From assembly GCF_013315695.1 (NCBI RefSeq), contig NZ_CP054353.1: a DNA stretch of 64,000 bases; one strand, written 5' to 3'. The position numbers were made by a program, and so were the translations under genes. Below, piece after piece: positions 2,659 to 25,752 of this stretch. Positions within the stretch are counted from its first letter, which is position 1. Each line of letters begins with the position of its first letter. The notes beneath the pieces are model-generated. The model ran no database searches and had not been told where the DNA came from. It saw only the letters and a program-made list of their open reading frames with translations. Source of the stretch: Escherichia coli. GTDB taxonomy: Bacteria > Pseudomonadota > Gammaproteobacteria > Enterobacterales > Enterobacteriaceae.

Positions 2659-2703
2659 TTAATTGATTAAAATGCCCGATAGCACACACTAGCGGGCATT
2701 TTT

Positions 2704-3207: not shown

Positions 3208-3399
3208 AGTTTAACCCAATAAAAATAAAGTAATTATACATTTGTTTAATACCACTCTCTTCTTACGTGCGCAAGCGTCTTATAAAGCAATAAAGTTTTT
3301 GCCAGCCTATTACTGATAAGAGTATTGTAACGTGGCAGAACATTTTACTGTCTGTATCTATAAATTATATCAATGGATTTTTTAATTCAGGGAATTTTT

Positions 3400-4596
3400 A
3401 TGGCTCAAGTTATTAATGAAATGGATGTTCCGTCCCATTCGTTTGTTTTTCATGGTACAGGTGAGAGATATTTTCTTATTTGTGTGGTGAATGTGTTGTT
3501 AACGATTATAACGCTAGGTATCTATTTACCATGGGCATTAATGAAATGTAGGCGTTATCTCTATGCTAATATGGAAGTTAACGGACAACGATTTTCTTAT
3601 GGAATTACTGGTGGGAATGTTTTTTTTAGTTGTCTTGTTTTTGTTTTTTTCTATTTCGCAATCTTAATGACAGTGTCAGCAGATATGCCGCTTGTTGGCT
3701 GTGTTTTGACTTTGTCACTGTTGGTTTTGCTTATATTTATGGCAGCAAAAGGACTGCGTTATCAGGCCTTGATGACCAGTCTCAACGGCGTAAGATTTAG
3801 TTTTAATTGCTCTATGAAAGGGTTCTGGTGGGTAACCTTTTTCTTGCCGATTTTAATGGCCATTGGGATGGGGACTGTTTTCTTTATCTCGACAAAGATG
3901 CTACATGCCAATAGTTCAAGTAGTGTTATTATATCTGTGGTTCTGATGGCAATAGTTGGTATTGTTTCCATTGGTATTTTTAATGGTACTTTATATAGCC
4001 TGGTAATGAGTTTTCTCTGGAGCAATACCAGTTTCGGTATACATCGTTTCAAGGTGAAATTAGATACTGCGTATTGTATAAAATATGCCATCCTCGCATT
4101 TTTAGCTTTATTACCTTTTCTCGCTGTTGCTGGTTATATTATCTTCGATCAAATATTAAATGCGTATGATAGTTCTGTGTATGCAAATGATGATATTGAG
4201 AATTTACAGCAATTTATGGAAATGCAACGTAAAATGATAATCGCGCAGTTAATCTATTATTTTGGGATTGCTGTTAGCACCAGTTATTTAACGGTGTCGT
4301 TGCGAAATCATTTTATGAGCAACCTGTCACTGAATGATGGGCGTATTCGTTTTCGCTCAACTTTAACATACCACGGTATGCTTTATCGCATGTGTGCGTT
4401 GGTGGTGATATCCGGGATTACGGGCGGTCTGGCTTATCCACTGCTGAAAATATGGATGATTGACTGGCAGGCAAAAAATACGTATTTGCTGGGCGATTTG
4501 GATGACCTTCCTTTAATCAATAAAGAAGAACAACCAGATAAAGGCTTCTTAGCCAGTATTTCACGGGGAATTATGCCTTCTTTACCATTTCTGTAA
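3400..4596 (+). CDS. yjgN: DUF898-type inner membrane protein
   Basis: Multi-pass hydrophobic protein; start chosen at internal ATG (MAQVINEMD) to give 398 aa as in K-12 YjgN. Confidence 0.8.
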   Translation: MAQVINEMDVPSHSFVFHGTGERYFLICVVNVLLTIITLGIYLPWALMKCRRYLYANMEVNGQRFSYGITGGNVFFSCLVFVFFYFAILMTVSADMPLVGCVLTLSLLVLLIFMAAKGLRYQALMTSLNGVRFSFNCSMKGFWWVTFFLPILMAIGMGTVFFISTKMLHANSSSSVIISVVLMAIVGIVSIGIFNGTLYSLVMSFLWSNTSFGIHRFKVKLDTAYCIKYAILAFLALLPFLAVAGYIIFDQILNAYDSSVYANDDIENLQQFMEMQRKMIIAQLIYYFGIAVSTSYLTVSLRNHFMSNLSLNDGRIRFRSTLTYHGMLYRMCALVVISGITGGLAYPLLKIWMIDWQAKNTYLLGDLDDLPLINKEEQPDKGFLASISRGIMPSLPFL

Positions 4597-4604
4597 GAGA
4601 TAAA

Positions 4605-4640
4605 AAAGGCCGGAGCATGCTCCGGCCTTCGTTTTCATCA
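4605..4640. terminator. Bidirectional rho-independent terminator between yjgN and valS
   Basis: Perfect GC-rich hairpin aaggccggagcatgctccggcctt flanked by A-run and T-run. Confidence 0.65.
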
Positions 4641-4651
4641 CTGTGTTTTGA

Positions 4652-7507
4652 TTACAGCGCGGCGATAACAGCCTGCTGTTCAATCAGCTTAGCTTTCGCT
4701 TCTGCATAGCCTTCCAGCTTCTCACGCTCTTTCGCGATGACCGCTTCCGGTGCGCGGGCGACAAAGCCTTCATTCGCCAGCTTGTTCTCGATACGGCTGA
4801 TTTCGCCTTCGATCTTCGCCACTTCTTTCGCCAGACGCGCCAGCTCATCTTCTTTGTTGATGAGGCCAGCCATCGGGATCAGCAGCTCTGCGCCGTCGAT
4901 GATCTTCGTAACGGAAACCGGACCTTTGTCATCGGCAGGCAGCACGGTGATGCTTTCCAGACGCGCCAGGGTTTGCAGGAAGCCACGGTTTTCATTTACG
5001 CGACGTTCTGCATCCGCGCTGCAACCACGCAGCAGCAGCTCCAGCGGTTTGCCCGGCGCGATATTCATTTCTGCACGGATGTTACGTACGGCAACGATCG
5101 CCTGTTTCAGCCACTCGGTGTCGGCCAGCGCCGCTTCATCAACCTGAGACGCATCATACTGCGGGAACGGCTGCAGCATGATGGTGTCGGCAGTGATACC
5201 GCAAAGTACTTTCACACGCTGCCAGATGGTTTCGGTGATGAACGGAATGATCGGATGCGCGAGGCGCAGCAGACCTTCCAGTACAGTCACCAGCGTATGG
5301 CGAGTACCGCGCAGTTCGGCGTCTGTTCCACCGTTCATTACCGGCTTGGTCAGCTCCAGATACCAGTCGCAGAACTGGTTCCAGGTGAACTCATACAGAA
5401 TGCCTGCGGCGATATCGAAGCGGAAGCTGTCCAGCGCTTCGCGGTACGCTTTGATGGTCTGGTTGAACTCCGCCAGAATCCAGCGATCCGCCAGCGACAG
5501 CGTCATTTCACCGCCGTTAAAGCCGCAATCCTGACCTTCTGTGTTCATCAGCACAAAGCGGCTGGCGTTCCACAGCTTGTTACAGAAGTTACGGTAACCT
5601 TCCAGGCGCTTCATATCCCAGTTGATGTCACGACCGGTAGAAGCCAGTGCCGCCAGGGTGAAACGCAGCGCGTCAGTACCGTGCGGCTCAATACCGTTCG
5701 GGAACTGCTTCTCGGTGCGCTTACGGATTTTGTCCGCCAGCTGCGGCTGCATCATATTGCCGGTACGTTTCTCCAGCAGTTCCGGCAGCGAAATACCGTC
5801 AACCATATCCAGCGGGTCAATAACGTTACCCTTGGATTTGGACATCTTCTGACCTTCGTCATCACGAATCAGACCAGTCATGTAAACGGTGTGGAACGGC
5901 ACCTGCGGTTTGCCATTTTCATCTTTGATGAAGTGCATGGTCATCATGATCATGCGGGCAATCCAGAAGAAGATGATGTCGAAGCCGGATACCATCACGC
6001 TGGTTGGGTGGAACTGACGCAGGGCGTCGGTGTTTTCCGGCCAGCCAAGGGTAGAGAAGGTCCACAGCGCAGAAGAGAACCAGGTGTCGAGAACGTCTTC
6101 GTCCTGACGTAGAGCAACGTCGGCACCGAGGTTATTTTCTTTACGCACTTCATCTTCGTTGCGGCCAACATAAACGTTACCCGCTTCGTCGTACCATGCC
6201 GGGATACGGTGACCCCACCACAGCTGACGAGAGATACACCAGTCCTGAATATCGCGCATCCAGGAGAAGTACATGTTTTCGTACTGCTTCGGTACGAACT
6301 GAATGTCGCCGTTCTCAACCGCTTCAACCGCCGGTTTCGCCAGTACATCGGCACGCACGTACCACTGGTCGGTCAGCATTGGTTCGATAACTACGCCGCC
6401 ACGGTCGCCGTAAGGAACGGTCAGGTCGTGCGGTTTAATTTCTTCCAGCAGGCCGAGTGCGTCAACCGCAGCAACGACCGCTTTACGTGCAGCAAAACGC
6501 TCGAGTTTCTGGAACTCTGCCGGGATTTCGCTGGAATAAACGTCAGATTCGTTACCTTTGGTATCGAACACCTGGGCGCTTTCACGGATATCGCCGTCAA
6601 AGGTCAGGATGTTGATCATCGGCAGCGCGTGACGTTTACCCACTTCATAGTCGTTAAAGTCGTGCGCCGGAGTGATTTTCACGCAGCCGGTGCCTTTTTC
6701 CATGTCGGCGTGTTCGTCGCCAACGATCGGAATACGACGGTTAACCAGCGGCAGAATGACATATTTGCCAATCAGATCTTTGTAACGCGGATCTTCCGGG
6801 TTAACGGCTACGCCAGTATCGCCCAGCAGGGTTTCCGGACGGGTAGTCGCGACCACCAGATAATCTTTACCGTCTGCGGTTTTCGCACCGTCAGCCAGCG
6901 GATAGCGGATGTGCCACATCGAACCTTTCGATTCGCGGTTTTCCACTTCCAGGTCAGAGATAGCGGTGCGCAGTTTCGGGTCCCAGTTTACCAGGCGTTT
7001 GCCACGGTAAATCAGGTCTTCTTTATATAGACGAACGAAAACTTCTTTCACCGCATTGGACAGGCCTTCGTCCATCGTGAAGCGTTCACGCTCCCAGTCG
7101 ACGGAGTTGCCGAGACGGCGCATCTGACGGGTAATGGTGCCGCCGGACTCCGCTTTCCATTCCCAGATTTTGTCGATGAAAGCTTCGCGGCCGTAGTCGT
7201 GACGGGTTTTACCTTCTTCTGCGGCAATCTTGCGCTCAACGACCATCTGGGTAGCGATCCCAGCGTGGTCAGTACCGACCTGCCACAGGGTGTTTTTGCC
7301 CTGCATGCGCTGATAGCGGATCATGGTATCCATGATGGTTTGCTGGAAGGCGTGACCCATATGCAAACTGCCGGTGACGTTCGGCGGCGGGATCATGATG
7401 CAGAAACTCTCCTGGCTTTCATCGCCATTAGGCTTAAAGTAGCCCTGCTTTTCCCAGTGCTCGTAAAGCGGCTGTTCGATATCTTGTGGGTTATATGTCT
7501 TTTCCAT
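4652..7507 (-). CDS. valS: valine--tRNA ligase
   Basis: 951 aa with class I synthetase HMGH and KMSKS motifs and C-terminal coiled coil. Confidence 0.97.
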
Positions 7508-7950
7508 TATTTCCAGGTTGCCGTATTCAGGTTGAAACCAGCCACGCGGTAGGCTTTATAGCGTTCGCGCGCCAGTTGTTTCAGAGAATCTTCATAAGGA
7601 ACGAAGTCTACCACTTCTGTGAAAGCGGTGGCAAAATCTGCAAAGCTTGTTCGCAGACTAATCAATATATCGTGCGGGCTGCTGCTGCGTTTTTGCGGCC
7701 AGGCGATCTCCACCGGCGCACCGCCGCGCGGTCCTTCTCCCGCTAAATTATGCGGAACAAAGCTTTCTGCCGGACGCGCCCATAGGGCTTCATCCAGCCG
7801 GTAAGCCTGCTTTTCATCTTCACAGGCGATGAGCACGCGCTTACCGCTGCGCCAACGTTCTGCGGCAATTTCACACACCAGTTGCTCAACGGCGCTTAAG
7901 CCATCGACGGTGGTGTCATTGTCCAGAAGGTAGAACGTCGCGTTTTTCAT
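7507..7950 (-). CDS. holC: DNA polymerase III chi subunit
   Basis: 147-aa protein matching HolC; immediately upstream of valS with overlapping stop/start. Confidence 0.93.
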
Positions 7951-7984
7951 AAATGGGGCTTCTTGTGGTGGATTTAAATACGCA

Positions 7985-8300
<316 letters not shown>

Positions 8301-8303
8301 CAA

Positions 8304-9818
<1,515 letters not shown>

Positions 9819-12374: not shown

Positions 12375-12412
12375 ATGATAAGACGCGCCAGCGTCGCATC
12401 AGGCAAAGACAA
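12375..12412. repeat. REP-like palindromic element
   Basis: gataagacgcgccagcgtcgcatcaggc motif shared with the REP units at 7985-8300. Confidence 0.45.
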
Positions 12413-13928
12413 ATCTCGCCTGACTTACCTTCTTCTCCCCCCCCAGCAAACTCCCCAACATCCCGCGTACAATCTGATTCGTCACCTGGCGAGCGGCGCT
12501 TTTGGCCATTGTTTGCACCACACCATCTTTCTTCCCGCCGCGTGGTCCGGTAGTGCCGAACAAAATATCCTTCAATCCACCAAGAATGCCGTCATCCACC
12601 GCTACCTCTTTCCCTTTCGCGGGGGGATTATTTTGCTGCTCGGTACTGGCCTGAAAGCCTTTTTGCAACATCTCATAGGCGGATTCCCGGTCCACCTCAT
12701 CCTCATATTTGCCATACACCGGAGAGTGATTAATCAAGCCATTACGCTCATCTTCCGTCACCGGTCCCATCCGCGAACAAGGCGCAATCACCATCGCCCG
12801 TTCCACCACAGAAGGGCTTCCTTTCGCATCCAGAAAAGAGATCAACGCCTCGCCGGTGCCCAGTTTCTGAATCGCCTTTTCGGTATCAAATGCCGGATTG
12901 ACCCGCATGGTTTGCGCCGCAGCTTTTACCGCTTTCTGATCTTTGGGCGTAAAAGTCCGCAAAGCGTGTTGAACGCGATTACCGAGCTGGCCGAGCACGT
13001 TATCCGGAATATCGGACGGATTTTGCGAAACGAACCAGACGCCCACGCCTTTTGAGCGAATAAGCCTTATCACCTGCTCAATCTTATCCAGCAGTACCTG
13101 CGGTGCATCGTTAAACAGCAGATGTGCCTCGTCGAAGAAAAACACCAGTTTTGGTTTCTCCAGATCGCCCGCTTCCGGCAATTGTTCATACAACTCCGAG
13201 AGCATCCACAACAGGCTGGCGGCATACAGTTTCGGCATCTGATAAAGCTTCTCGGCGCTGAGGATATTGATAACGCCTTTACCGTTGGCATCGGTGCGCA
13301 TCCAGTCTTTGATATCCAGCATCGGCTCACCAAAGAAGTGTGCTGCGCCTTGCTGTTCCAGCGACAACAGCCCGCGCTGGATGGCACCAACCGATGCGCT
13401 ACTGATATTTCCGTACTGATTCTGGAAAGATTTGGCGTTATCGCCGATGTATTGGGTAATCGCCCGCAAATCTTTAAAGTCGAGCAGTAACAGCCCCTGA
13501 TCGTCAGCAATGCGGAAGATGATATTCAGCACGCCAGATTGCACATCGTTGAGATTCAACAGCCGCGCCAGCAACAGCGGCCCCAGATCCGAAACCGTCG
13601 CCCGCACCGGATGGCCTTTCTCGCCAAAGATATCCCACACCACCACCGGATTGGCATGCGGTTGCCAGTCATTGACGCCGATATTTTTAAGCCTTGTGAG
13701 CAGTTTTTCCGACGCCGTTCCTGCCTGCGCGATACCGGTCAGATCGCCTTTCACATCAGCCATAAACACCGGCACGCCGATTTCCGACAATGACTCTGCC
13801 AGTTTTTGCAGCGTAACGGTTTTACCCGTCCCCGTTGCGCCAGTAATCAGCCCGTGACGGTTAGCCATTCCCGGCAGTAAAAACAGTTCTGTGTCCGGCG
13901 TGCGGGCAATTAACAGGGGTTCGCTCAT
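12399..13928 (-). CDS. yjgR: DUF853 family P-loop NTPase
   Basis: Walker A GATGTGKT; start set at MSEPLL with GGAGG RBS to give about 500 aa. Confidence 0.85.
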
Positions 13929-14055
13929 GAGATTTCCTCCAGTTCCTGCCTGGAGTATAGGCAACGGCTGTGCACTCTTCACCGCTAAATTCAGCAGATT
14001 GCGAGACGCCTTCCAAAGAGATTTAAGTGCCGGGCGACAGCACCCGGCAAAGGGA

Positions 14056-15075
14056 TCAGAAGTCAGCTTTCAGGACTACTCGGTAGCGAGCTTTACCATC
14101 GCGTACATGCTGAATGGCGTCGTTAATTTTCGACATCGGGAACAGTTCGGTTGTCGGCGCAACCTTGCTGCGGGCGGCAAAGCGCATCAGCTTTCGCAGC
14201 TCATAAGGCGTGCCGGTAGCAGAACCAGAGATGCTGCGGTCGCCCGCAATTAACGTAAAGGCCGGAACAGACAGCGGCGTGAGAACCGCACCGACCGTAT
14301 GGAAATTACCGCCATAGGTCAGCGCCTCAAAATAAGGCTGCCAGTCGAGGCTGACGTTCACAGTATTGATAATGAGATCAAACTGCCCCGACAGGGCTTT
14401 CAGTGCCTGCGGATCGCGGCTATTCACCACTTTATCGGTACCCATCGCCAGTACTTCCTGCTCTTTCGCCGGATTAGAACTAAAGGCCGTCACCTCGCAT
14501 CCCATTGCGTGCAGAAGTTTTATAGCGATATGCCCCAGCCCGCCAATACCAATTACCCCAACGCGGCTGGTAGCAGTGATATGGTGCATCAACAGTGGTT
14601 TAAAGACCGTGATACCGCCGCACAACAGCGGCCCGGCGGACTCGATATCAATATTTTCTGGCAGTGGAATCACCCATTGCCAGTCCGCACGCAACTTCTC
14701 GGCAAAGCCACCGCGATTCATAATCGTCGGCACCGCACCTTGCTCGCAGTTGATCTGATTACCGCTAATACAGGCGTCGCAGTGACCACAGCTACGCGCC
14801 GTCCAGCCAATCCCGACACGCTGACCGACCTGCAAACCTTTATCCTGCGCGGCGCTCCCGAGTGCCACCACGCGCCCAATCACCTCATGCCCGGCAACCA
14901 GCGGATATTGTGAAAATCCCCATTCGTTATCGATCATCGACAGATCGGAATGACAAATCCCGCAGTAATCCACCTGCACTTCAACATCTTGTGGCTTCAG
15001 CTCACCGGGATCGTACTCATAAACTTCCAGTTCGCCGCCCGCTTCTTTTGCGGCATAGCTTTTTATCATCGACAT
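14056..15075 (-). CDS. ahr: NADPH-dependent aldehyde reductase, zinc-type alcohol dehydrogenase family
   Basis: Zn-binding GHE and CGxCxxC motifs plus GxGxxG Rossmann motif; start set at MSMIKSYAA (339 aa). Confidence 0.9.
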
Positions 15076-15270
15076 TTTTGGGTCCTTCTCTGGTGTTGTT
15101 TGGGAAGTGTAGAGCATGGCAGGGCGGGGTGCCTGGAGTGTGACAAAGGTTACATATCGCTGAGTGTAATGCTGAAAATTTCAGCACTTAGCGAGGTGGG
15201 TGCAAGCTGGCGCTTGCATGGTGGCGTGCGACAGGTATAATCCACAACGTTTTCCGCATACCTCTTCAGT

Positions 15271-15355
15271 GCCGAAGTGGCGAAATCGGTAGACGCAGTT
15301 GATTCAAAATCAACCGTAGAAATACGTGCCGGTTCGAGTCCGGCCTTCGGCACCA
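15271..15355 (+). tRNA. leuX: tRNA-Leu (anticodon CAA)
   Basis: 85-nt sequence gccgaagtggcgaaatcggtagacgc...ggcacca with long variable arm and CAA anticodon loop, ending in CCA. Confidence 0.92.
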
Positions 15356-15357
15356 TC
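15313..15357 (+). repeat. Direct repeat copy 1 (leuX 3-prime end, attachment-site core)
   Basis: 45 bp identical except one mismatch to 25708-25752. Confidence 0.8.
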
Positions 15358-15889
15358 TACATTTTCCTCTTGAAAAACAAGCGATTAAGTAAATTATTTT
15401 ACCTTTTTTGCCTATCTAATCTTCACTGATTCTTTCCCGTATAAAAGCCACTGTGATTGTTAATGGCTTTGGTATGTTAGCACGCAGTGGCAAGTAGTTA
15501 CCAGGCTCAACCTTGTACTGCATACGCCAGTATGCCCCCCTTTGAAGCAGGAAGACGCGCCGCCGTCTCTAAACCTATGCCAAGCACTTTTAACCGTTCC
15601 ACACTTAGTTCGGCGTTCCGTTCAAGCCTGTCGTGGTGACTTACCACGAATAAACAAGCAAATTCGCGGTATGGTATTCGTTACGAGAGCGGTTAACTGA
15701 CAAGACTCCTGTGATACGCCTAAGGTGCTTAAATTGATGCGTCCAACATGGCACAAAAGGCGGTCTATCGTTTAATTTTGCTCCATACATCAACTGGCAT
15801 TGCCAGCTGTATGGGGCTTGGTCTGCTGGTTCCGATGAACGGATTAAATTGCTAAGATGCAGACCATAAGCCATAAGGCGGAGATAAGT

Positions 15890-17098
15890 ATGAAATCTGT
15901 AGAACTATTTGCCGGTGCTGGTGGCTTGGCTATGGGTTGCGAAATTGCTGGTTTTGAGCATCTTGCAGTCGTTGAATGGGATAAATGGGCCTGTGATACC
16001 GTTAGAGAGAACAAAAAGAATGGCTTTCCGCTGTTGTCTGATTGGGATCTTTTTGAGGGTGATGTAAGAGAATTTGATTGGTCGAAAATCCCTAAAGGGA
16101 TTGACCTTCTTGCGGGAGGGCCACCTTGCCAGCCATTTTCAATCGGTGGTAAGCACAAGGCTAATTCTGATTCGCGGGACATGTTTCCAGCGACAGCAGA
16201 AGCGATCAGGCAAATTCGCCCTAAGGCTTTCATCGTCGAGAATGTGAAAGGCTTAACACGGGCAACCTTTGCGAGCTATTTCCAGTACATCCAGTTACAG
16301 CTTGAGTTTCCAGAAGTAGCCCCGCGAAATGGCGAAGACTGGAGCGAGCATTTAAAACGCTTGCAGGAAGAAAAAACCAGTGGAAAGAACAAAGGGAGAG
16401 GGCTGACGTATAACGTTCTGGCTACGTTAGTCAATGCAGCAGACTACGGCATCCCACAAAAACGTGAGCGTGTCTTCATTGTTGGCTTCCGCGATGATCT
16501 TGAAATTGAGTGGTCGTTCCCTAAACCGACACACAGTTATGATGCACTCGTTTATGATCAGTGGGTTACTGGTGATTACTGGAAACGACATGGTTTAGAA
16601 ATGCCAACTGTTCCAAGCCAGATGGTTAACCGTATCGCAAAATTGCGTAAAAATCCTCCCGATACACTTCCGTGGAAAACTGTTCGAGATGCAATCGCGG
16701 ATTTGCCAGATCCTGAAACAAAGGCGGCAAAGATGATCCGGAATCATGCGTTCCAGGCGGGGGCACGAACTTATCCCGGTCATACCGGAAGCCCCTTAGA
16801 TCTGCCAGCTAAAACGCTCAAAGCAGGTGCTCATGGCGTTCCTGGGGGCGAGAACATGCTTGTTCGTGATGATGGCTCAGTACGCTATTTTACTGTGCGA
16901 GAAAGTGCCAGAATTCAAACATTTCCCGATAGTTATCGTTTTCACGGGAGTTGGACTGAAACTATGAGGCAGTTAGGTAACGCTGTGCCGGTTCATTTGG
17001 CGTATTGCGTTGCCAGCAGTGTAGCGGAAAAGCTGCTGACCTCTGAAATTGGGAACATCCTTAAGCAGGGTGGCAATTATAAAAGGGCTTCTGCATGA
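15890..17098 (+). CDS. DNA (cytosine-5)-methyltransferase, Type II R-M modification subunit
   Basis: Motif I FAGAGG, motif IV GGPPCQPFS, motif VI ENVKGL; start set at MKSVELF with GGAG RBS. Confidence 0.88.
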   Translation: MKSVELFAGAGGLAMGCEIAGFEHLAVVEWDKWACDTVRENKKNGFPLLSDWDLFEGDVREFDWSKIPKGIDLLAGGPPCQPFSIGGKHKANSDSRDMFPATAEAIRQIRPKAFIVENVKGLTRATFASYFQYIQLQLEFPEVAPRNGEDWSEHLKRLQEEKTSGKNKGRGLTYNVLATLVNAADYGIPQKRERVFIVGFRDDLEIEWSFPKPTHSYDALVYDQWVTGDYWKRHGLEMPTVPSQMVNRIAKLRKNPPDTLPWKTVRDAIADLPDPETKAAKMIRNHAFQAGARTYPGHTGSPLDLPAKTLKAGAHGVPGGENMLVRDDGSVRYFTVRESARIQTFPDSYRFHGSWTETMRQLGNAVPVHLAYCVASSVAEKLLTSEIGNILKQGGNYKRASA

Positions 17099-17745
17099 CA
17101 GGAAAGGTCATACCATTTAATCCACTTGATAAACAAAATTTAGGTGCCAGCGTTGCGGAAGCCTTATTGAGCAAAGATGCTCATCCTCTGGAGGAGTTAA
17201 CCTCATTTCAAGGAGCAGGGATTTACGCAATTTATTACACTGGCGATCATCCTGCTTATAGGCAACTGGCAGAACTGAATCGTGACGGGCAATTTCGATT
17301 GCCTATCTACGTGGGTAAGGCCGTCCCAGCAGGGGCGAGAATGGGGCTTACCAACCCTGATAAGGTTGGTAACGTTCTGTTTAGGCGCTTGAAAGAACAT
17401 GCAGAAAGTATTCGCGCAGCGGAAAATCTTTCGATTGAAGATTTTTATTGTCGATTTTTGGTTGTTGATGACATCTGGATCCCATTGGGAGAATCGCTGG
17501 TTATCTCTCGCTTTAAACCGATTTGGAATTCGTCTATTGATGGTTTCGGTAATCATGACCCAGGTAAGCATCGCTACACTGGTTTACGTCCTCGCTGGGA
17601 CTTTATGCACCCGGGGAGAGGATGGGCTCAAAATTTACGTGAGCGTGATGAAACTGTGGATGAACTCATTCGTGATTCTATACAGTATCTTCAGAATTTA
17701 CCGCCTTGCTTGGCTCAGAAATTTATCGAAGCTGAAGGCGATTAA
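17095..17745 (+). CDS. GIY-YIG family restriction endonuclease (Eco29kI-like)
   Basis: GIYAIYY ... YVGKA motifs; 216 aa; start overlaps the methyltransferase stop (ATGA). Confidence 0.6.
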   Translation: MTGKVIPFNPLDKQNLGASVAEALLSKDAHPLEELTSFQGAGIYAIYYTGDHPAYRQLAELNRDGQFRLPIYVGKAVPAGARMGLTNPDKVGNVLFRRLKEHAESIRAAENLSIEDFYCRFLVVDDIWIPLGESLVISRFKPIWNSSIDGFGNHDPGKHRYTGLRPRWDFMHPGRGWAQNLRERDETVDELIRDSIQYLQNLPPCLAQKFIEAEGD

Positions 17746-17866
17746 TCAGCAAATGATCATCGGAGGCATCTGCCTCCGAATGTGATTAAGCCTTGGTTGA
17801 CAAAGTGGTTGCTTAAAACATTAAGCGTTAATTTTCTGGCCCTCTACCTTCTGACGTGCATAATTC

Positions 17867-18442
17867 TCAAATATCAGGGAGTTGCAAGAACGACTTAAGT
17901 CGGTAGAAGGTTGCTTTGCTGATCTCTAACCTATCCTGGACCGCTGCTGGTGGTAATCCTCGTGCTAATAACTCACGTACTTGTTCAACGGTTGCTTTGA
18001 TCGGTCTGCCGCAATGCTTACCTTCCGACTGAGCTCGTTTGATTCCTGCGGCTCTACGCTCTGCGATTAGGTCTTTTTCCAGGCTGGCAAGTCCTGCCAT
18101 CATAGTGAGCATGGCTTTACCCACTGGTGTTGAAAGATCAAACCCCTCTCGCAAGCTGACAACCTTCACACCCTTCATTTGCAACATTTCAACAGTAGAT
18201 AGTACATCGATAGTGTTACGTCCCAAGCGGTTTATAGCAATCACGATCAGCGTATCGCCTTCTCGCACATAATTGAGTAGTTCAGCAAACCCTGGACGCT
18301 CTCCTGCCTTGATTGCACCACTCACCGCTTCATCACTAAACCAGCGAGTTACGCTATAACCAGCATCGGCTATCTGCTTCTTCTGGTTTTCAACGTTTTG
18401 ATCGCTGGTGGAAACTCGCACATATCCGATCACAGTTGTCAT
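17867..18442 (-). CDS. serine recombinase (resolvase/invertase family)
   Basis: N-terminal GYVRVSTSDQ catalytic serine motif and C-terminal HTH; 191 aa. Confidence 0.88.
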   Translation of the reverse strand: MTTVIGYVRVSTSDQNVENQKKQIADAGYSVTRWFSDEAVSGAIKAGERPGFAELLNYVREGDTLIVIAINRLGRNTIDVLSTVEMLQMKGVKVVSLREGFDLSTPVGKAMLTMMAGLASLEKDLIAERRAAGIKRAQSEGKHCGRPIKATVEQVRELLARGLPPAAVQDRLEISKATFYRLKSFLQLPDI

Positions 18443-18449
18443 GATGTTC

Positions 18450-18580
18450 TCTAAGTCTCAAAAGGTAGTGTCAAAATAATAGCTGTCTCAAAATTAAAGA
18501 TCAACCTTTTGAGACAAGGCGAAGCCGCATTCTGTCGTTGCGTCGGTGTGGTCTTATAAGGAGATGGTTTTGAGACTGGA
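18450..18580. promoter_or_regulatory. Candidate recombination (res-like) site upstream of the serine recombinase
   Basis: Four copies of GTCTCAAAA: two direct (18456, 18485) and two inverted (18507, 18568). Confidence 0.35.
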
Positions 18581-18681
18581 TAGCAGCGGTTTAGGAATAG
18601 AGGCTTGGAACGAGAGTATGGGGAGAATGGAAATTCGGAATGGGCGGTCAACTTATTGGGCGTGATTGCTCACGCCTTTGT

Positions 18682-19033
18682 TTAGATCTCAGAACACAGG
18701 CTCAGCGTGTAGAGTGCCGTTTCACCATCGTTGTTAGTTGGGCGCATAACGAAAACTGGATCACTGCCGTTGTCGATGTAAGTAACCGCTATTCCACCGT
18801 CTGGGGTGGCGTACATCTTCGCAATACTTTTCTCTCCAATGAAACCCAGCCGCCAGGTTTTACCACCCATGCTCACTTTCATGATTTTGTCCCGCACATC
18901 GAGGCGAGTTTCGACAGACGATTTTTGGCTACCAGAATCTATCTGCCCTTCCTGAATGGCCTTACAGGTGAATGTGGTTGCACTTGAGGCGAAGGGGGGG
19001 GACGAGCAGCGCCGCGAGAATCAATTTTTTCAT
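18682..19033 (-). pseudogene. Small secreted protein gene disrupted by a frameshift in a G8/C8 homopolymer
   Basis: ATG at 19033 encodes signal-peptide-like MKKLILAALLVPP, then the frame breaks at the C8 run (18994-19001); removing one C fuses it to ORF 18682..18897. Confidence 0.5.
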
Positions 19034-19213
19034 GGTCTTCCTTTTGGATACGAGTTAAGAGTTCGTCGGGAGACATTATAAAATCTTTAATTGATAAAAA
19101 CGATCAATTTCTATCGTATTGATCGATAAAATTGATCATAATTGAAACTATAAATCCTACGCTCAGTCGTTATGGATGAGGTTTTTTATAAGAGAACTCA
19201 ACGGGATGATGTT

Positions 19214-19420
19214 ATGAAAAGAGCAATGATGGTGATGTGTGGGCTACTGTTTTCACAGTTGGTAGCAGCAGGGCAGATCACAATGATCGATCCCCAGCAG
19301 GATACGACGGAGAATGGCAAGACGCTTTGCACCTACGAGAACAGCCAGTATGTTTTTACCTACGTCACTAAAGGGCAGTGCCCCTATGCAAAGACTTTCG
19401 ATACTCAGGATTCAGAGTAG
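19214..19420 (+). CDS. small putative secreted protein (about 68 aa, two Cys)
   Basis: Internal start MKRAMMVMCGLLFSQLVAAG gives a signal-peptide-like N-terminus. Confidence 0.4.
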   Translation: MKRAMMVMCGLLFSQLVAAGQITMIDPQQDTTENGKTLCTYENSQYVFTYVTKGQCPYAKTFDTQDSE

Positions 19421-20490
19421 AGGCTGCATAAAATAGGAAGTGTTGTTTAACTTCATGAAAAGACAGGTGTGCTTAGCACAAGCCTCCAACGGATTGATTG
19501 TTAATTCTTCTGATAACGGCACAGCGCAAGGCTTTACGCAAAGAGAGTGATAGTTACTATCTTGATGACTATGGCAATTTTCCCCCTGTAACAACGGCAT
19601 TCATTACCTGCTAATTACCAGCGGATTACGCGCCAGTTTGATGGGAATTAACTCAGGGTTATTGCATGGGGTAGTGTGGAGTGAGCAGGGTGACAGTCTA
19701 CCGTTGGGTGAAGGGCTGATAGGTAATCGACGCGAAGCGCCGGAACCATACTGTTATGCGCTGGCCTTGGTGCCAGGCTCACGCCGCGCATGAAAGATAG
19801 CCATTACAGGAGAGATAATTTTTGACAAGTTACCTTCATCAAAGGTGCTTCTCCTGTATAAATGCTTGTTATGCTCGCTATGCTCCCAAACACAAACCCA
19901 TTAAACCCAACTAACTTAAGGTTAGTTAATTGGTTTTCTCTCTCTCTTGGGCTACTACCGCCCAAACTTTGCTTAATGCCATACAGCGACTACGCCGCCA
20001 TTAACAACACTCCACAATGATCCAATGGCATTCCTGCTTAATGTCATCCACCGATCTTGATTAGCCACCAACCAAACAACCACCCTAAATCTTTTAGGCT
20101 GTCTGTTTATCTGGTGCAAGGTAGCTATGACATTACCATACGTGCAAACATCCCAAGCCAATCATCACTGATTGGCTCGTGCTGATGCACTTCAGTGCAG
20201 AGAGAGAATCTCTCTACTATTATAGCGTATTTAGTAGGTCCCTGTATTTAAAGGAAAAATTAGGGTGAAAATCGCCATTGTTCACTTTTTTTCTCAAGAA
20301 ATGGCGAGATGCTGTTCGTAAATGGGAGGCATGGCTGTCTTCTCTGGTGGCAAGTTCTACCACAAATTTTGATTGACAGCAACCATCTATTTCTGGTATA
20401 AGAAGCACTAATTGCAAAGCAAAAATGCAACTAATTGAAAATGACCAAAAATATTTCATGAGATCACCGTTTGGGTATTGACAAACGTTA

Positions 20491-20781
20491 GTGGTCTATG
20501 GTATTCTTAATACTAAGAAGGGGAGAAAACCTTCTGAACTTTTCAGCCCTGGGCAGGGTAACTGCCTGGGGCTTTTTGCATCCAAAATCCGAAGGAGGCC
20601 ATTATTGAAGTATTACAGCAGTGACCAGATTTTTAATGACCTGGTGAGCGGCGAAGTGAAACGCCACGTTATTTACGCATCTATGCAAGCAGCAAAATCG
20701 AGAGGGTATACAGACCGAATGGAAATGTTTCAATCTGCAATTATCCGTTATGACCAACACCGAAGGGAGAACACCAACTAA
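20491..20781 (+). CDS. small hypothetical protein; true start may be the TTG at about 20608 after the AAGGAGG RBS
   Basis: ORF 10 nt upstream of the 306-aa ORF; strong RBS aaggagg at about 20593. Confidence 0.4.
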   Translation: MVYGILNTKKGRKPSELFSPGQGNCLGLFASKIRRRPLLKYYSSDQIFNDLVSGEVKRHVIYASMQAAKSRGYTDRMEMFQSAIIRYDQHRRENTN

Positions 20782-20790
20782 GGAGGAACA

Positions 20791-21711
20791 TTGATTCAAG
20801 CATACGAAGACGGCTATTTTTACAGAGATACCCCGCACCACGATCACTGCCCGCTTTCAGCATTTTCCAGACCATCCCAGCAATTCATCGTTATTGATAA
20901 TGTTCTGTACGTTGTCGAAGTGGAAAGTGGTGAAATTCTTCACTACGACTCGACAGAGTATTTGCTTGATGGTGGCATTGTTCAGGATCTGCATTTGAGT
21001 TACTCGACAGCAGACACCGCCAAATCAAAACAGGCTCACCGTGAATACGCTAATAAGCTGGGCGACCTTCCAGGGAATGCAGCCTATAACGGGATCAAGG
21101 AATACGCAGACGTATTAAGCAAGCCAGATTTCAAGAAAGTATTTGCATTGTGTCAGGAAGTAGATAGACGCAATGTAGTGTTTATAAAACGTGCGGATTT
21201 GAGCATAATACTGAACACCACGCCGGATCATCTCAATCGTGTATTATCTGCTCTTGAACGTAAGCACTACATCAAAGTTGATAAAGCTGAACACCAGAAA
21301 GGAGTATTAAAACTGTGGGTTAATCCTTCGTTTGTCTGGAAGGGTGATTCAGCTAACCGCTACTTATCTGGATATTTGCAGGGCTTCCCAATCTTGGAAC
21401 GTAAACGCTCCACAAAACGTTCTGACGTGCTCGACACGCTCACGGCTGCTGCAATGGTTGCCTTTGATACCTGGCACATTGAACACGGTTATAAGGCCAA
21501 TCAGCCTCATTCTAATGAATGGTATGCAGAGATCACGATGTACGAAAACGCCTACGGCGAAGGGGTGAGGCTTGCAGCAGAAAATAAGACATTGAACAAG
21601 TTATTGAACCCGGCAACATCTGAGGGGGATTTCGTTTATGAGCTATTCACTACGGCACAATACAGGGAATACCTGCAAACATTGGCAAAACAAGTAAGGA
21701 GATTACACTGA
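20791..21711 (+). CDS. hypothetical 306-aa protein with possible winged-helix segment
   Basis: Long ORF with GGAGG RBS; no recognisable catalytic motif. Confidence 0.6.
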   Translation: MIQAYEDGYFYRDTPHHDHCPLSAFSRPSQQFIVIDNVLYVVEVESGEILHYDSTEYLLDGGIVQDLHLSYSTADTAKSKQAHREYANKLGDLPGNAAYNGIKEYADVLSKPDFKKVFALCQEVDRRNVVFIKRADLSIILNTTPDHLNRVLSALERKHYIKVDKAEHQKGVLKLWVNPSFVWKGDSANRYLSGYLQGFPILERKRSTKRSDVLDTLTAAAMVAFDTWHIEHGYKANQPHSNEWYAEITMYENAYGEGVRLAAENKTLNKLLNPATSEGDFVYELFTTAQYREYLQTLAKQVRRLH

Positions 21712-21995
21712 ACCAATGTTTTGTAATAAAGAAGCCAGCACAATACTTATTTGAACTAAATTAAGCAACTCTCATACACACCGCTCTTTTGGTGAGTTAT
21801 TTATTACTATCTTTAAGGTGATGAGTGTTTATACTGTATTAAATTATTATAAATAAGGGGATGGTGTATGATTACAGCTCTTTATTGGTGTTTGTTCTTT
21901 CAGTTTGCGCTGTATTTTTTGTCTAAATTAAATTTAAATTGAAAATTAGCCCTGATCTTGAAATAGTTCAGGGCTGGAATTTCTAAAAAATAACA

Positions 21996-22955
21996 TCAGT
22001 GTGCTTTTAGTTCATCTTTAGCTAATGAGTCATAGAGTATTTTTGTGAGCGGAGACTCTAAATAATCATCACTAAGTAGTTTAATAAAATGCTTTTGGGA
22101 TTCTTTTGTTTTTACGAGCAATTGTGTGCCGTCTTCACTTACAATTAAAACTGTTGAAAGATAGGTATGCTTGCTTACATAATCGATAATTTCTGGCACA
22201 TCAATTTTCCCCAGTACAGGTGAGTGTTTGGCAATTTTGGCAAGCTTCCTTGAGAAAGAAATTTCTTTTGCACTCTTCTCAAGGTGAGTAAGATCTTCGA
22301 TAAGCAATGAAGCTTTCAATGCTTCCAAAGCCACCGTTGCTTGAGCTTCAATAACCTGATGGAACTGCATCGTTATTTCTAAAGTTTTTTGATTTTTTAT
22401 CAGGAATTCGTCGTCTATAAGAGCCAAGTCATAATTATAATCTAATCGGAACACTTGGGTTGGCAATTCTTTTAAATACCCGTCTGCGTCTGGTATCAAG
22501 TTAAACAATTTTCGGCTTTGCTCAAAAACCATGAGGTTTGTTTTGTTCTTATACAATGACAAACACTTATTGTTGCCTCTTAACTGAATTATTATCCCTT
22601 TCACGTCAGTAAATTTATTATTTAAATCATAATAATCCTGAGAGTTAGGCGGTATGGCTATTGCATTTTTTATAAAATCAAACTCTTTTGGATGTTCTTC
22701 ATAATCAAATGCAAACAAGGCATTTTTTCTATCATCAAAATTCGAAAGGAGAGGAATGGTTAAATCCTCATTTGTCACAATGTCGTCGTAAAGCCTAATT
22801 TTGAATCCTTCAACAATTTTTGGTAAAGCTTCAGCATCTATTTTAGATAATTTTAATTCATAATTATCTTCAGTTTTAACTATAAAGATAATTCTTATAC
22901 CTGAGAAATTATCGAAAATTTCGGTGATTTGATTTTTAAAATTCACAGGGGTCAT
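21996..22955 (-). CDS. 319-aa soluble protein, KwaB-like (candidate Kiwa component)
   Basis: Co-oriented with and overlapping the membrane protein gene; size and order match the Kiwa KwaA-KwaB arrangement. Confidence 0.55.
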   Translation of the reverse strand: MTPVNFKNQITEIFDNFSGIRIIFIVKTEDNYELKLSKIDAEALPKIVEGFKIRLYDDIVTNEDLTIPLLSNFDDRKNALFAFDYEEHPKEFDFIKNAIAIPPNSQDYYDLNNKFTDVKGIIIQLRGNNKCLSLYKNKTNLMVFEQSRKLFNLIPDADGYLKELPTQVFRLDYNYDLALIDDEFLIKNQKTLEITMQFHQVIEAQATVALEALKASLLIEDLTHLEKSAKEISFSRKLAKIAKHSPVLGKIDVPEIIDYVSKHTYLSTVLIVSEDGTQLLVKTKESQKHFIKLLSDDYLESPLTKILYDSLAKDELKAH

Positions 22956-23572
22956 TATTTTTTCCTTGCTATGAAAACGTAGTCATCAAAAAAACTATAG
23001 AATACTTGATCGTCAACAGTCAGCACATCCATCGAGATTGCAATGACGTTTTTTACTTCACCACTTCCTGCATGAGAAATGTTAACTCTATACAACTTAT
23101 AACCGAAAAGCGCCAAAGTAGGATTCGCATAATACTTATCCGTTTTAATGAAAATTAAACCAATAACTACTATTAAGAGAAAGTACGCAATGTTTTTCTG
23201 AGGGTCATCAAAACTGAATCCCATAAAAGGTACTATGTAAGTTGCTAAGAAAGTCAAACTTTCATAGCTCTCACTTTGGCAAGCAGTGATTGTTACACAG
23301 TCAGCATTGTTGACCTTCGTCAATCCTTTAAACCTTCTATAGAAATAAAATGCTATTCCTATAAAAATTAAACAAATTATTGAGATTATGTTGCTGGAAG
23401 CTAATTGATAAAAACCTATAAAATGGCAGGAAGAGCCATAACAAAATGGGATTTTTGCGCTCAAAATGATAATAAAAACAAACAGCAACATTAAAGACAG
23501 TATGTATAGTCCCATCTTGTTGAATGTGCTTTTTCGTTTCATGTTATCCCCCAGTGATGAAATCATAATCAA
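22955..23572 (-). CDS. four-TM membrane protein, KwaA-like (candidate Kiwa component)
   Basis: 205 aa with four hydrophobic helices; AT-rich; stop overlaps start of downstream gene. Confidence 0.6.
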   Translation of the reverse strand: MIMISSLGDNMKRKSTFNKMGLYILSLMLLFVFIIILSAKIPFCYGSSCHFIGFYQLASSNIISIICLIFIGIAFYFYRRFKGLTKVNNADCVTITACQSESYESLTFLATYIVPFMGFSFDDPQKNIAYFLLIVVIGLIFIKTDKYYANPTLALFGYKLYRVNISHAGSGEVKNVIAISMDVLTVDDQVFYSFFDDYVFIARKK

Positions 23573-23826
23573 AACTTGATCATGTGAACATCAAAAGCAT
23601 ACCTTAAAGCACTGGTTTTTTGTACAGCAATCGGCAAATTCATGCGTACTATCGAACTTACAAGAGGACGCATAGTAGATTTTCTGATCCAAATTGCCAT
23701 CATGTACTTTTAATTCATGTAGAGTAGCCAATGAAGTATCAGCAATTACATGATTTTATTGTCTATTTTTTATGTTTTTTTGTAAAACACCAGAAGATTG
23801 AAAAGGGCCAATGAGGCCCCTTGGCG

Positions 23827-24078
23827 TTATTTACGGTTTTTGTTGGATTGAGCCAGCACGGAAGCAGCAAGCTGCTTGGTTAAAGTACTGGAACGTGGAT
23901 TATCCAGCGCCGCAGATGCTTTATGTTCCATTGCACCACTTGTCTGATTTGAGGAACCTTTTTGAGAGAGAGCTGAACCAGCAAGGCTCTTCTGAATTGC
24001 AGATGCGTTGGGGTTGTTTAGGGTTTGTGCTGCGACTGATGCGACTTTACTTGATGTTTGCTTTGAATTGTTAGCCAT
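23827..24078 (-). CDS. small S/A/Q/N-rich protein with internal repeats
   Basis: ORF with repeated KxxASxxAQ-like segments; start set at MANNSK. Confidence 0.35.
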   Translation of the reverse strand: MANNSKQTSSKVASVAAQTLNNPNASAIQKSLAGSALSQKGSSNQTSGAMEHKASAALDNPRSSTLTKQLAASVLAQSNKNRK

Positions 24079-24309
24079 TCTCAACACCTATTCAAGAAGT
24101 GAATTATTGAACATCTTGTATTTAAATCAAGAATGAATACAAGATGTAGTGTTAATGATAATCCTCACCGCTTCGCTGTGCAACGATGAAAAATCTCTTT
24201 ACTGGATAAAACTACAGTTTTAAAAATGTGCGGTATTTCTGCTTTCAAATTGGCTTAATGTGCATACATTTAGATGATACCACTGCGTTTTCTGATCGTT
24301 ATTCGTTCA

Positions 24310-25593
24310 CTATTTATCAGTTTTCTCACGTTGGGGCTCCGTCTCTATCTCTGGGTAACGTAATAGCTCGATGTATGGCTGTAGTTCAATCGGAGATGCT
24401 GCATTCTTGCTGTACGTCTTGAAACTTTCTGTAGAGCCGCGCTCATGACCCAAGAGAAGTGCGATCCGGTCTTCTGTAACTGGTTTTAACTTACCTCGTC
24501 CAACCCCCCCACGATCCAGAATCTGCGCCACTGCATGGCGTAGACTGTGAAAAACTTTCAACTCTGATCCTACTTCCCCCAATGCCTTACGTTTAGCCCT
24601 CGTAAAACGCTGTGAATGCCACGTAGAGCGCTTTCCATCTGCGCGGTCAGCTATCGACGCACGATAGAATAAAAAGCCGTTATGGGGCTTCTCACGCAGC
24701 GACAAAACCAACGGAGTGATCAGGCTATGCACCGGAATAATACGGGCTGCTGATTTGGTCTTCCCCTCCGTCACTTCGAAACATAACACCCCTTCAATCT
24801 CTCGGATGTTGGCTGCACGTAATGAACAAATTTCATTCAGGCGCATACCGCTATACATCCCGATCAGCGTTACATTTTGCATCTCTTCATCATTCGCCAT
24901 CACAGCGAACACCTTCGCCAATTCTCCAGGCTCAAATACTTCATAACTCACCTTGCTACTTTTGGCCTCCAGCGCATGACCGCGCCAGATGTTTTCTTGC
25001 GGTGCATCGTGGTAGCGATTACGGGCCAGATCCCAGATTTGAGCCAGTGCGCTGACATAGTTTTGTATGGTCTGTGGTGCTTTCTCCGTCTTGAGCTGAT
25101 CAAGCCAGCCTGTAACGGTGGTTCGGTTAACGTCACGAAGCTGAACATCACGCTTTTTCAGATGTTCTAAGAGCACTTCAACAGCCTTGTTTGTCTTCGA
25201 TAGCGTAGTGAGTTTGCGCTTCTCGCTGAACTGCAATAGATAAAGATCACGCATTTTCAGGAGGGATGGCACTCCTTGGGATTGGGTATTGCTCATGACA
25301 TGCTGAACAGGTGTTTCATGAACTCGGGCGCTAACTCTGCGTAGCTCTGCAATTGCCTGCTCAATCTTACTCCCTTCTCTTGGTTTGACCTGTTCCCGTA
25401 AACGTATCCATTCAACAGCGATAGCATCTCTGAACAATCGCGCCTGACGTATGTCACTTGTGCCAGTGCTCTTGACGAAGTAGCGCTTGTTGCCAAAAAG
25501 CGAGCGCATGTAAGCTGGAACGGTAATCCTTACCAGATAGTTTCCGCATGGATCTAAAACTAAGTAACGATCTCTCTTGAAACTCATGTTCAC
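24310..25593 (-). CDS. tyrosine-type site-specific integrase
   Basis: C-terminal catalytic region with HSLRH and LLGH motifs; adjacent to the distal direct repeat. Confidence 0.88.
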   Translation of the reverse strand: MNMSFKRDRYLVLDPCGNYLVRITVPAYMRSLFGNKRYFVKSTGTSDIRQARLFRDAIAVEWIRLREQVKPREGSKIEQAIAELRRVSARVHETPVQHVMSNTQSQGVPSLLKMRDLYLLQFSEKRKLTTLSKTNKAVEVLLEHLKKRDVQLRDVNRTTVTGWLDQLKTEKAPQTIQNYVSALAQIWDLARNRYHDAPQENIWRGHALEAKSSKVSYEVFEPGELAKVFAVMANDEEMQNVTLIGMYSGMRLNEICSLRAANIREIEGVLCFEVTEGKTKSAARIIPVHSLITPLVLSLREKPHNGFLFYRASIADRADGKRSTWHSQRFTRAKRKALGEVGSELKVFHSLRHAVAQILDRGGVGRGKLKPVTEDRIALLLGHERGSTESFKTYSKNAASPIELQPYIELLRYPEIETEPQREKTDK

Positions 25594-25707
25594 CCCGGCT
25601 ATTTTGTAAGGGCTTTTACATGGGGAAGTTTCCTGTGTAGATTGTTGGAGCGGCGAATTATTAGCAGTTGATTCAATAGCTTAGATCAGCTTGCTGGACA
25701 AGCGAAC

Positions 25708-25752
25708 ACCGTAGAAATACGTGCCGGTTCGAGCCCGGCCTTCGGCACCATC
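25708..25752 (+). repeat. Direct repeat copy 2 (partial leuX 3-prime end)
   Basis: accgtagaaatacgtgccggttcgagcccggccttcggcaccatc matches tRNA 3-prime end 15313-15357 with one mismatch. Confidence 0.8.

Follow-up and report, generated by a model that had tools for sequence, protein, structure and literature searches.

Two overlapping genes beside the leuX tRNA gene of Escherichia coli raise three questions: whether they encode a Type II restriction-modification (R-M) system, which sequence such a system would recognize, and whether the pair is a mobile unit in its own right. We addressed these in a 64-kb window, the whole stretch of DNA analysed here. A sequence-only reading of the locus had called the pair a Type II R-M system with an Eco29kI-class GIY-YIG enzyme. 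Pfam, PDB, six catalytic residues and the predicted fold all agree with that assignment, and the pair is very probably a Type IIP R-M system of the Eco29kI family, with activity as predicted below. The core features are:

15890-17098, plus strand: C5 DNA methyltransferase, M.Eco29kI-like, 402 aa (PF00145, TIGR00675 dcm, PADLOC MTase_II)
17095-17745, plus strand: Eco29kI-family GIY-YIG Type II restriction endonuclease, 216 aa (PF09517, PDB, PADLOC, fold)
17095-17098, plus strand: ATGA, in which the methyltransferase stop overlaps the endonuclease start (sequence)

The methyltransferase open reading frame spans 15857/15890-17098 on the plus strand, and the ATG at 15890, which has a GGAG Shine-Dalgarno sequence 6 nt upstream, is the start chosen by PGAP and by all homologues. 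The canonical C5 motifs picked out earlier (FAGAGG, PCQ and ENV) were located in the 402-aa protein as FAGAGG at residue 7, GPPCQPFS at 77 and ENVKGL at 117, and are followed by QKRERVFIVG at 190, RYFTVRE at 332 and GNAVPV at 363, so that motifs I (FxGxG), IV (PCQ), VI (ENV), VIII (QxRxR), IX and X (GNAVP) occur in the order typical of C5 enzymes. The Pfam PF00145 match is split into two halves, with E-values of 5e-34 and 5e-26, TIGR00675 dcm scored 180.9 bits (cut-off 100.65), and PADLOC MTase_II (PDLC03307) matched with an E-value of 4.7e-135. Since the protein begins directly at motif I, it has no N-terminal HTH extension. Identity to M.Eco29kI is 50% over the full length, including the target-recognition domain (TRD), and the methyltransferase homologue of Neisseria gonorrhoeae is 51% identical, also over the full length.

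Membership of the endonuclease in the Eco29kI family is directly apparent from several comparisons. Pfam RE_Eco29kI (PF09517) matched with an E-value of 4.9e-66 over model positions 2-160 of 164, the PDB structures of Eco29kIR (3MX4/3NIC/3MX1) with 2e-39, and PADLOC REase_II (PDLC03452) with 1.1e-153 (507 bits, 216/216 positions); the Pfam and PADLOC E-values indicate that this homology is not due to chance. The GIY...YVG motifs that had been noticed in the 216-aa open reading frame lie at residues 42-44 (GIY) and 72-74 (YVG). Mutagenesis of Eco29kI has identified Y49, Y76, R104, H108, E142 and N154 as important (PMC1952068), and all six have conserved equivalents here (Y44, Y72, R98, H102, E133 and N145), which did not vary in any of three alignments, of 5, 7 and 20 sequences. 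Structure prediction had been proposed as a check of the GIY-YIG fold, and the AlphaFold2 model (pLDDT 82.7, pTM 0.81) significantly matched only R.Eco29kI: the top 11 Foldseek matches in the PDB were all this enzyme (E 3e-18 to 3.5e-16, TM 0.78-0.86), and the next match had an E-value of 0.6. We also considered a Vsr-like repair nuclease, which was rejected because the protein matches RE_Eco29kI only. A search of NCBIfam found no model matching the endonuclease, so the name assigned by PGAP must derive from elsewhere, such as Pfam or BlastRules.

The least conserved part of the endonuclease comprises residues 83-94, after the second GIY-YIG strand, where model confidence is also lowest (pLDDT about 55). 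The equivalent segment of Eco29kI is its DNA-binding loop (PMC3384342). Because the loop varies among proven CCGC/GG cutters as well, its divergence argues only weakly against the Eco29kI reading.

CCGCGG is the likely target of both enzymes, a proposal that draws on conservation of the TRD and on the uniform specificity of the characterized members. Eco29kI, Cfr42I, MraI, NgoMIII and R.DraR1 all cut CCGC/GG (PMC2241918; PMC4081073; PMC10855626), and CCGCGG is the likely site here because every characterized member of the family does so. The principal alternative is that the pair is a genuine Eco29kI-family R-M system belonging to a subfamily with the methyltransferase gene first (M-then-R) and a 216-aa endonuclease, and that this subfamily has a new, non-CCGCGG specificity. 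The endonuclease is only 36-48% identical to Eco29kI (36% over the full length), the putative DNA-binding loop 83-94 carries a three-residue deletion relative to that enzyme, and our literature search found no member of the 216-aa subfamily with a determined site. However, the TRD (residues 201-331) aligns with that of M.Eco29kI with few gaps and at 48.1% identity, and is thus as conserved as the catalytic core (51.5%), whereas for C5 methyltransferases of other specificity no alignment reaches this domain; M.HhaI and M.HaeIII align with the methyltransferase only over residues 2-124. Moreover, Cfr42I makes the same CCGC/GG cut at 32% identity to Eco29kI (PMC2241918), and the loop differs among proven isoschizomers too. 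A departure from CCGCGG therefore appears unlikely.

Avoidance of CCGCGG was also examined as a signal of specificity and was set aside, since other GC-only palindromes are avoided at least as much. The window contains 5 CCGCGG sites compared to 16.1 +/- 3.75 in shuffled sequences, but other GC-only hexamer palindromes are equally rare (3-22 each), so the rarity of CCGCGG says nothing either way. The low-GC island in which the pair lies has almost none of any GC-only hexamer palindrome.

We propose that the 402-aa enzyme would methylate C5 of a cytosine in the target, most likely the palindrome CCGCGG, and that this modification would shield host DNA. The 216-aa enzyme would most likely bind the same site when unmethylated, as a homodimer or higher oligomer, and may cut both strands through a one-metal active site in which Tyr44 would act as the general base together with Tyr72, Arg98, His102, Glu133 and Asn145. 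Cleavage is expected at CCGC/GG and would restrict incoming phage and plasmid DNA.

A pair of this kind could also persist as a solitary methyltransferase, with a function in epigenetics or anti-restriction, next to an endonuclease gene that is decaying and whose product is inactive or unexpressed. Decay is common among chromosomal R-M systems, a general consideration that favors this alternative, and our promoter scan found none for the methyltransferase. However, the endonuclease is full length, covering all 216 positions of the PADLOC model, the six catalytic residues are intact, and the ATGA junction is preserved. The pattern of variation also argues against decay. The pair was found in 7 of 5426 complete E. 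coli genomes, in which the RefSeq names are 'DNA cytosine methyltransferase' and 'Eco29kI family restriction endonuclease', and the protein records of the pair are WP_000147098.1 and WP_000843538.1. The endonuclease sequence is the same in six genomes, and a second allele is 95.5% identical to it. Between the two alleles there are 11 synonymous vs. 4 non-synonymous codon differences in the endonuclease gene, and 41 vs. 7 in the methyltransferase gene. We regard a solitary methyltransferase as very unlikely.

How the Eco29kI-type pair might be expressed is suggested by the organization of the genes, which is directly visible at this locus. The C5 methyltransferase gene lies directly upstream of the endonuclease gene, and, as had been read from the sequence, the latter starts inside the methyltransferase stop: its ATG (17095-17097) overlaps the TGA (17096-17098) in a 4-nt ATGA. 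The same order and a 4-nt overlap (ATGA, or GTGA in Pseudomonas) were present in 9/9 related M-then-R loci examined, from E. coli E1739, Pseudomonas, Dickeya, Paraburkholderia, Halomonas and Corynebacterium. This junction likely results in translational coupling. Both genes would be co-transcribed, methyltransferase first, and translation of the endonuclease would probably be coupled to methyltransferase translation and proceed at a lower level. Such coupling would stand in for the controller protein of some systems. The sequence-only reading reported no controller protein, and we likewise found no HTH controller gene beside the endonuclease, either in the PGAP annotation or in a search of small open reading frames. 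The region upstream of the pair is:

15358-15889, plus strand: leader from leuX to the methyltransferase gene, 532 nt (no PGAP gene, no Rfam match)

PGAP called no gene in this leader or in 17746-17866, and three small leader open reading frames had no NCBIfam match even at E <= 1. A promoter and terminator scan of 15300-18600 found 2 promoter-like sites vs. 4.1 expected, none of them near the methyltransferase start, and an Rfam scan of 15200-19200 detected only the tRNA.

We also examined the surroundings of the pair. It had been described as sitting immediately beside leuX and a serine recombinase, and both are indeed neighbors: leuX lies 534 nt upstream of the methyltransferase gene, and the recombinase 121 nt downstream of the endonuclease gene. 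The features of the island are:

15271-15355, plus strand: leuX, tRNA-Leu(CAA), the island integration target (ARAGORN; Rfam tRNA, 59.4 bits)
15313-15357, no strand assigned: attL, the left 45-nt direct repeat, at the leuX 3' end (repeat search)
17867-18442, minus strand: small serine recombinase of DNA-invertase type, 191 aa (phrog_125 DNA invertase, E 2.3e-57)
21996-23542, minus strand: Kiwa, a second defence cargo, with kwaB at 21996-22955 and kwaA at 22955-23542 (PGAP, offset +3355; PADLOC)
24310-25587, minus strand: island tyrosine integrase (PGAP; phrog_1 integrase, E 1.2e-27)
25708-25752, no strand assigned: attR, the right 45-nt repeat of the leuX 3' end (repeat search)

The R-M pair is cargo of a 10.4-kb island integrated at leuX, which also carries Kiwa (KwaB, E 3.9e-116; KwaA, E 1.3e-79 by PADLOC). 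An island inserted at a tRNA gene is characterized by an integrase and by direct repeats of the tRNA 3' end at its two boundaries; here these are the tyrosine integrase and the 45-nt repeats attL and attR (98% identical). Strain E1739 has the same 45-nt repeat. leuX has been described as the most occupied defence hotspot of E. coli (PMC12707154), and this locus indicates that a small leuX island can combine R-M with Kiwa.

The suggestion that the pair is a mobile R-M cassette holds in part. A mobile unit does exist, namely the 10.4-kb island with its leuX repeats and tyrosine integrase, but no repeats flank the pair itself, and the recombinase module occurs in islands with other cargo. That the pair is an independent cassette moved in and out by the adjacent serine recombinase is highly improbable: only 121 nt separate the end of the recombinase gene from the endonuclease gene, homology to related islands continues past the recombinase stop codon for about 8 nt where clear and about 60 nt where weak, and the islands differ in cargo at exactly that position, but our repeat search found no direct or inverted repeats bracketing 15358-17858, M-then-R pairs in other genera lack an adjoining serine recombinase, and the sole clear mobility signature, the 45-nt leuX repeats with the tyrosine integrase, bounds the whole island.

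The serine recombinase is instead part of the island backbone and not a mobilizer of the R-M pair. The module that contains it (17859-19719) is shared at 81-92% with thiM islands carrying other cargo, and is common to several small E. coli islands (at leuX, the thiM TPP riboswitch and rnpB), in which the equivalent slot holds a TIR protein, an AIPR protein, or a Ser/Thr kinase and PP2C phosphatase. An NCBIfam match of the recombinase to Mpi-type invertases was below the cut-off, and a weak 24-nt inverted repeat (75% complementary) that flanks its gene may be due to chance. It is conceivable, albeit quite unlikely, that this is an interchangeable cargo slot where cargo would be exchanged, or its expression switched, with the help of the recombinase or its sites, in the manner of an integron- or shufflon-like defence slot; a non-CCGCGG site in the 216-aa M-then-R subfamily is the lesser alternative here.

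This is already a known kind of system, correctly named by public annotation, and beyond that annotation its significance is slight. With this pair, a few E. coli lineages have among their defences what is probably a CCGCGG-specific m5C R-M system, and, if the predicted site is true, carrier strains such as EcPF7, MS15047 and NCTC9080 should resist SacII and restrict unmodified DNA containing CCGCGG.

Among known systems, the pair can be compared most directly with Eco29kI (PDB 3MX1/3MX4/3NIC), which is encoded on the 3.9-kb plasmid pECO29 whereas the leuX pair lies on a chromosomal island. The two systems comprise the same two protein families, and their GIY-YIG endonucleases agree in fold and in every catalytic residue; neither has a controller protein, and the genes of both overlap by ATGA. 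However, the order on pECO29 is endonuclease (390-1034) then methyltransferase (1034-2182), and this endonuclease-first operon was not found at leuX. Relative to Eco29kI, the leuX endonuclease is also missing an N-terminal insertion of about 10 residues, and its loop following the second GIY-YIG strand is different. The contrast extends to regulation: the Eco29kI operon, with its endonuclease gene first, offsets this order by an internal methyltransferase promoter and antisense promoters (PMC3113576), whereas in the subfamily to which the leuX pair belongs the methyltransferase comes first with a coupled overlap, and such coupling would also replace those promoters.

The closest relatives are members of the 216-aa M-then-R subfamily, which have the same length, 51-88% identity, the same order and the same 4-nt start/stop overlap. 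All are annotated only by computation, and their hosts are Pseudomonas aeruginosa, Stenotrophomonas, Xanthomonas, Burkholderia, Dickeya, Paraburkholderia and Halomonas. Their contexts differ from the leuX island, being plasmids and other islands, and the P. aeruginosa loci additionally have a Vsr gene and a second paralogue of 255 aa, whereas the E. coli copy has no vsr. Cfr42I, NgoMIII and MraI/R.DraR1 belong to the same family as the window endonuclease. Cfr42I is a tetramer (PMC2241918), and R.DraR1 has a distant m4C methyltransferase partner and prefers Mn2+ (PMC10855626). The window endonuclease shares 37-42% identity with R.DraR1 and the N. gonorrhoeae homologue, both of which retain the catalytic residues. 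The N. gonorrhoeae locus is arranged endonuclease then methyltransferase, opposite to the pair at leuX.

On profile and model evidence, the 216-aa protein (17095-17745, + strand) is an Eco29kI-family GIY-YIG Type II restriction endonuclease and would be expected to work like Eco29kI. The Pfam family RE_Eco29kI (PF09517) matches it with an E value of 4.9e-66 over model positions 2-160 of 164, and all three solved entries for R.Eco29kI (3MX4, 3NIC and 3MX1) match at E ~2e-39. The PADLOC Type II REase model matches end to end (216 of 216 positions, 507 bits, E 1.1e-153), so that a near-identical sequence is probably among those behind that model. The GIY and YVG motifs and the Eco29kI class proposed by the sequence-only reading were both borne out, with the motifs at residues 42-44 and 72-74. 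The active site of Eco29kI comprises Y49, Y76, R104, H108, E142 and N154, five of which have been tested by mutagenesis, Y76 mutants being unobtainable (PMC1952068). Their equivalents here are Y44, Y72, R98, H102, E133 and N145, and all six are invariant in family alignments of 5, 7 and 20 members. An AlphaFold2 model (pLDDT 82.7, pTM 0.81) gave eleven R.Eco29kI chains as its only significant PDB matches (E 3e-18 to 3.5e-16, TM 0.78-0.86), the next match having E 0.6; the assignment thus survived fold prediction, which had been proposed as a means of refuting it. Every family feature open to testing agrees: besides profile match, catalytic residues and fold, there is a neighbouring methyltransferase whose recognition domain is homologous. 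Gene order alone departs from that of the type system.

The methyltransferase open reading frame (+ strand) runs from 15857 to 17098, and its ATG at 15890, with a GGAG Shine-Dalgarno sequence 6 nt 5', is the start used by PGAP and by all homologues, giving a protein of 402 aa. The C5-methyltransferase motifs seen in the sequence-only reading occur in canonical order: FAGAGG (residue 7), GPPCQPFS (77), ENVKGL (117), QKRERVFIVG (190), RYFTVRE (332) and GNAVPV (363). Pfam PF00145 matches in two halves (E 5e-34 and 5e-26), and the TIGR00675 match exceeds the curated cut-off. Identity to M.Eco29kI is 50% over the full length; by region it is 51.5% for the N-terminal catalytic core, 48.1% for residues 201-331 (the target-recognition domain) and 58.5% for motifs IX-X. 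The homologue from Neisseria gonorrhoeae is 51% identical throughout; M.HhaI and M.HaeIII, which have other specificity, can be aligned at residues 2-124 only.

By homology, the target of the pair is probably CCGCGG. Eco29kI, Cfr42I, MraI and NgoMIII cut CCGC/GG (PMC2241918; PMC4081073), as does R.DraR1 of Deinococcus radiodurans (PMC10855626), and this is the cut site of all characterised family endonucleases. Cfr42I is 32% identical to Eco29kI (PMC2241918), and R.DraR1 is ~41% identical to the window endonuclease. Residues 83-94, the counterpart of the extended DNA-binding loop of Eco29kI (PMC3384342), combine the poorest conservation with the lowest model confidence; because this loop also varies among proven isoschizomers, its divergence is weak evidence for an altered site. 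Avoidance of CCGCGG in the window is no stronger than that of other GC-only palindromes and so does not bear on the site.

The pair was acquired horizontally and sits, as cargo, in a variable slot of a mobile island at leuX on the E. coli chromosome, arranged as follows.

12399-13982, - strand: yjgR, 5' of leuX
14056-15117, - strand: ahr, 5' of leuX
15271-15355, + strand: leuX, tRNA-Leu(CAA)
15313-15357: 45-nt direct repeat of the leuX 3' end, 98% identical to the second copy
15890-17745, + strand: R-M pair, first element of the island
17867-18442, - strand: serine recombinase of DNA-invertase type (phrog_125, E 2.3e-57)
Following the recombinase: small hypothetical genes
20791-21711: 306-aa "winged helix-turn-helix domain-containing protein", island backbone
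21996-23542, - strand: Kiwa kwaB/kwaA (PADLOC, E 3.9e-116 and 1.3e-79)
24310-25587, - strand: tyrosine integrase
25708-25752: second copy of the 45-nt repeat (attR)

The repeats bound a 10.4-kb island (15313-25752) whose G+C is below that of the flanking core genes, at a described E. coli defence hotspot (#37; PMC12707154). NCBIfam, PADLOC and PHROGs gave nothing for the 306-aa protein, which might serve the element in replication or regulation. Beyond attR come another P4-like integrase, which is degenerate, and IS elements or remnants, suggesting that islands have accreted in tandem at leuX.

A mobile cassette had been proposed earlier from the proximity of leuX and the serine recombinase. 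Mobility holds for the island, but not with the serine recombinase as mobiliser of the pair: no repeats bracketing the pair itself were found in the window, homologous M-R pairs elsewhere have no adjoining serine recombinase, and the recombinase module accompanies other cargo in other islands. The mobility apparatus that can be demonstrated consists of the tyrosine integrase and the leuX repeats. The module (17859-19719; recombinase and two small hypothetical genes) was compared with four thiM loci and one rnpB locus (L007, L008, L014, L016 and L015, respectively). It has 81-92% DNA identity to the thiM TPP riboswitch islands, in which a TIR or AIPR protein occupies the position of the pair; related rnpB and thiM islands have a different recombinase gene next to the same small genes, and other cargo again. 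What these islands carry there varies: a TIR-domain protein, an AIPR protein, a Ser/Thr kinase plus PP2C phosphatase, or unknowns. Homology becomes clear at 17859, 8 nt beyond the stop codon of the recombinase, which places the R-M pair in the variable slot. This recurring slot is the only thread with some potential for novelty, and lies outside the R-M finding.

The recombinase gene is flanked by an inverted repeat of 24 nt that is weak (75% complementary). Immediately upstream of the gene are three GTCTCAAAA-type half-sites, with a perfect 12-nt inverted pair among them. These features (17812-17835 and 18455-18515) may be res- or hix-like binding sites for the recombinase; the loci compared showed no inversion variants.

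The locus is an ordinary, already catalogued R-M system that had been read correctly. It occurs in 7 of 5426 complete E. coli genomes, six at 99.9-100% identity and the seventh at 95.5%. Between the two alleles compared, 41 synonymous and 7 non-synonymous codon differences in M, and 11 and 4 in R, fit purifying selection acting on M and R alike. The endonuclease family is very large (>7594 homologues at E <= 1e-5), the 216-aa form being common in Pseudomonas aeruginosa, Stenotrophomonas, Xanthomonas and Burkholderia. Named homologues are almost always "Eco29kI family restriction endonuclease", a few being just "restriction endonuclease" and some JGI records "hypothetical protein"; the exact window proteins are in RefSeq/PGAP under correct family names (WP_000843538.1 and WP_000147098.1). 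We found no characterisation of this particular pair in the literature. A methylome survey of ST131 reported methyltransferases "similar to M.Eco29KI" in clade C strains (PMC4659465), which may or may not represent the locus described here.

The absence of a controller protein, noted in the sequence-only reading, also stands: PGAP predicts no gene in the 532-nt leader or the 121-nt spacer 3' of R, the small leader ORFs have no family match, and the methyltransferase begins directly at motif I and therefore lacks an N-terminal HTH extension. A promoter could not be assigned around the pair. The R ATG (17095-17097) overlaps the M TGA (17096-17098), confirming the ATGA junction. We infer co-transcription with translational coupling; most economically, R would be translated from a single M-R transcript by coupling at ATGA, which would guarantee that methyltransferase is made first and in excess.

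M precedes R in all closer relatives examined, namely E. coli E1739, Paraburkholderia, Halomonas, Corynebacterium, P. aeruginosa (three loci) and Dickeya (two loci), each with a 4-nt overlap (ATGA, or GTGA in Pseudomonas). In the P. aeruginosa loci (L009-L011, ~3790-8410) the pair is followed by a 255-aa RE_Eco29kI-family paralogue that PADLOC does not match; a gene for a Vsr mismatch endonuclease is close by. The window order is the reverse of that in the type system on pECO29, where R (390-1034) precedes M (1034-2182) and expression depends on an M promoter within R and on antisense promoters (PMC3113576; PMC12707154). The PLSDB record of the N. gonorrhoeae locus (L018) is a 2.17-Mb "plasmid", evidently a mislabelled chromosome. 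That locus (2405-4679) has R (213 aa), a 3-nt gap, M (377 aa) and then a 159-aa ORF; it is thus R-first like pECO29, and gene order divides the family into two clades.
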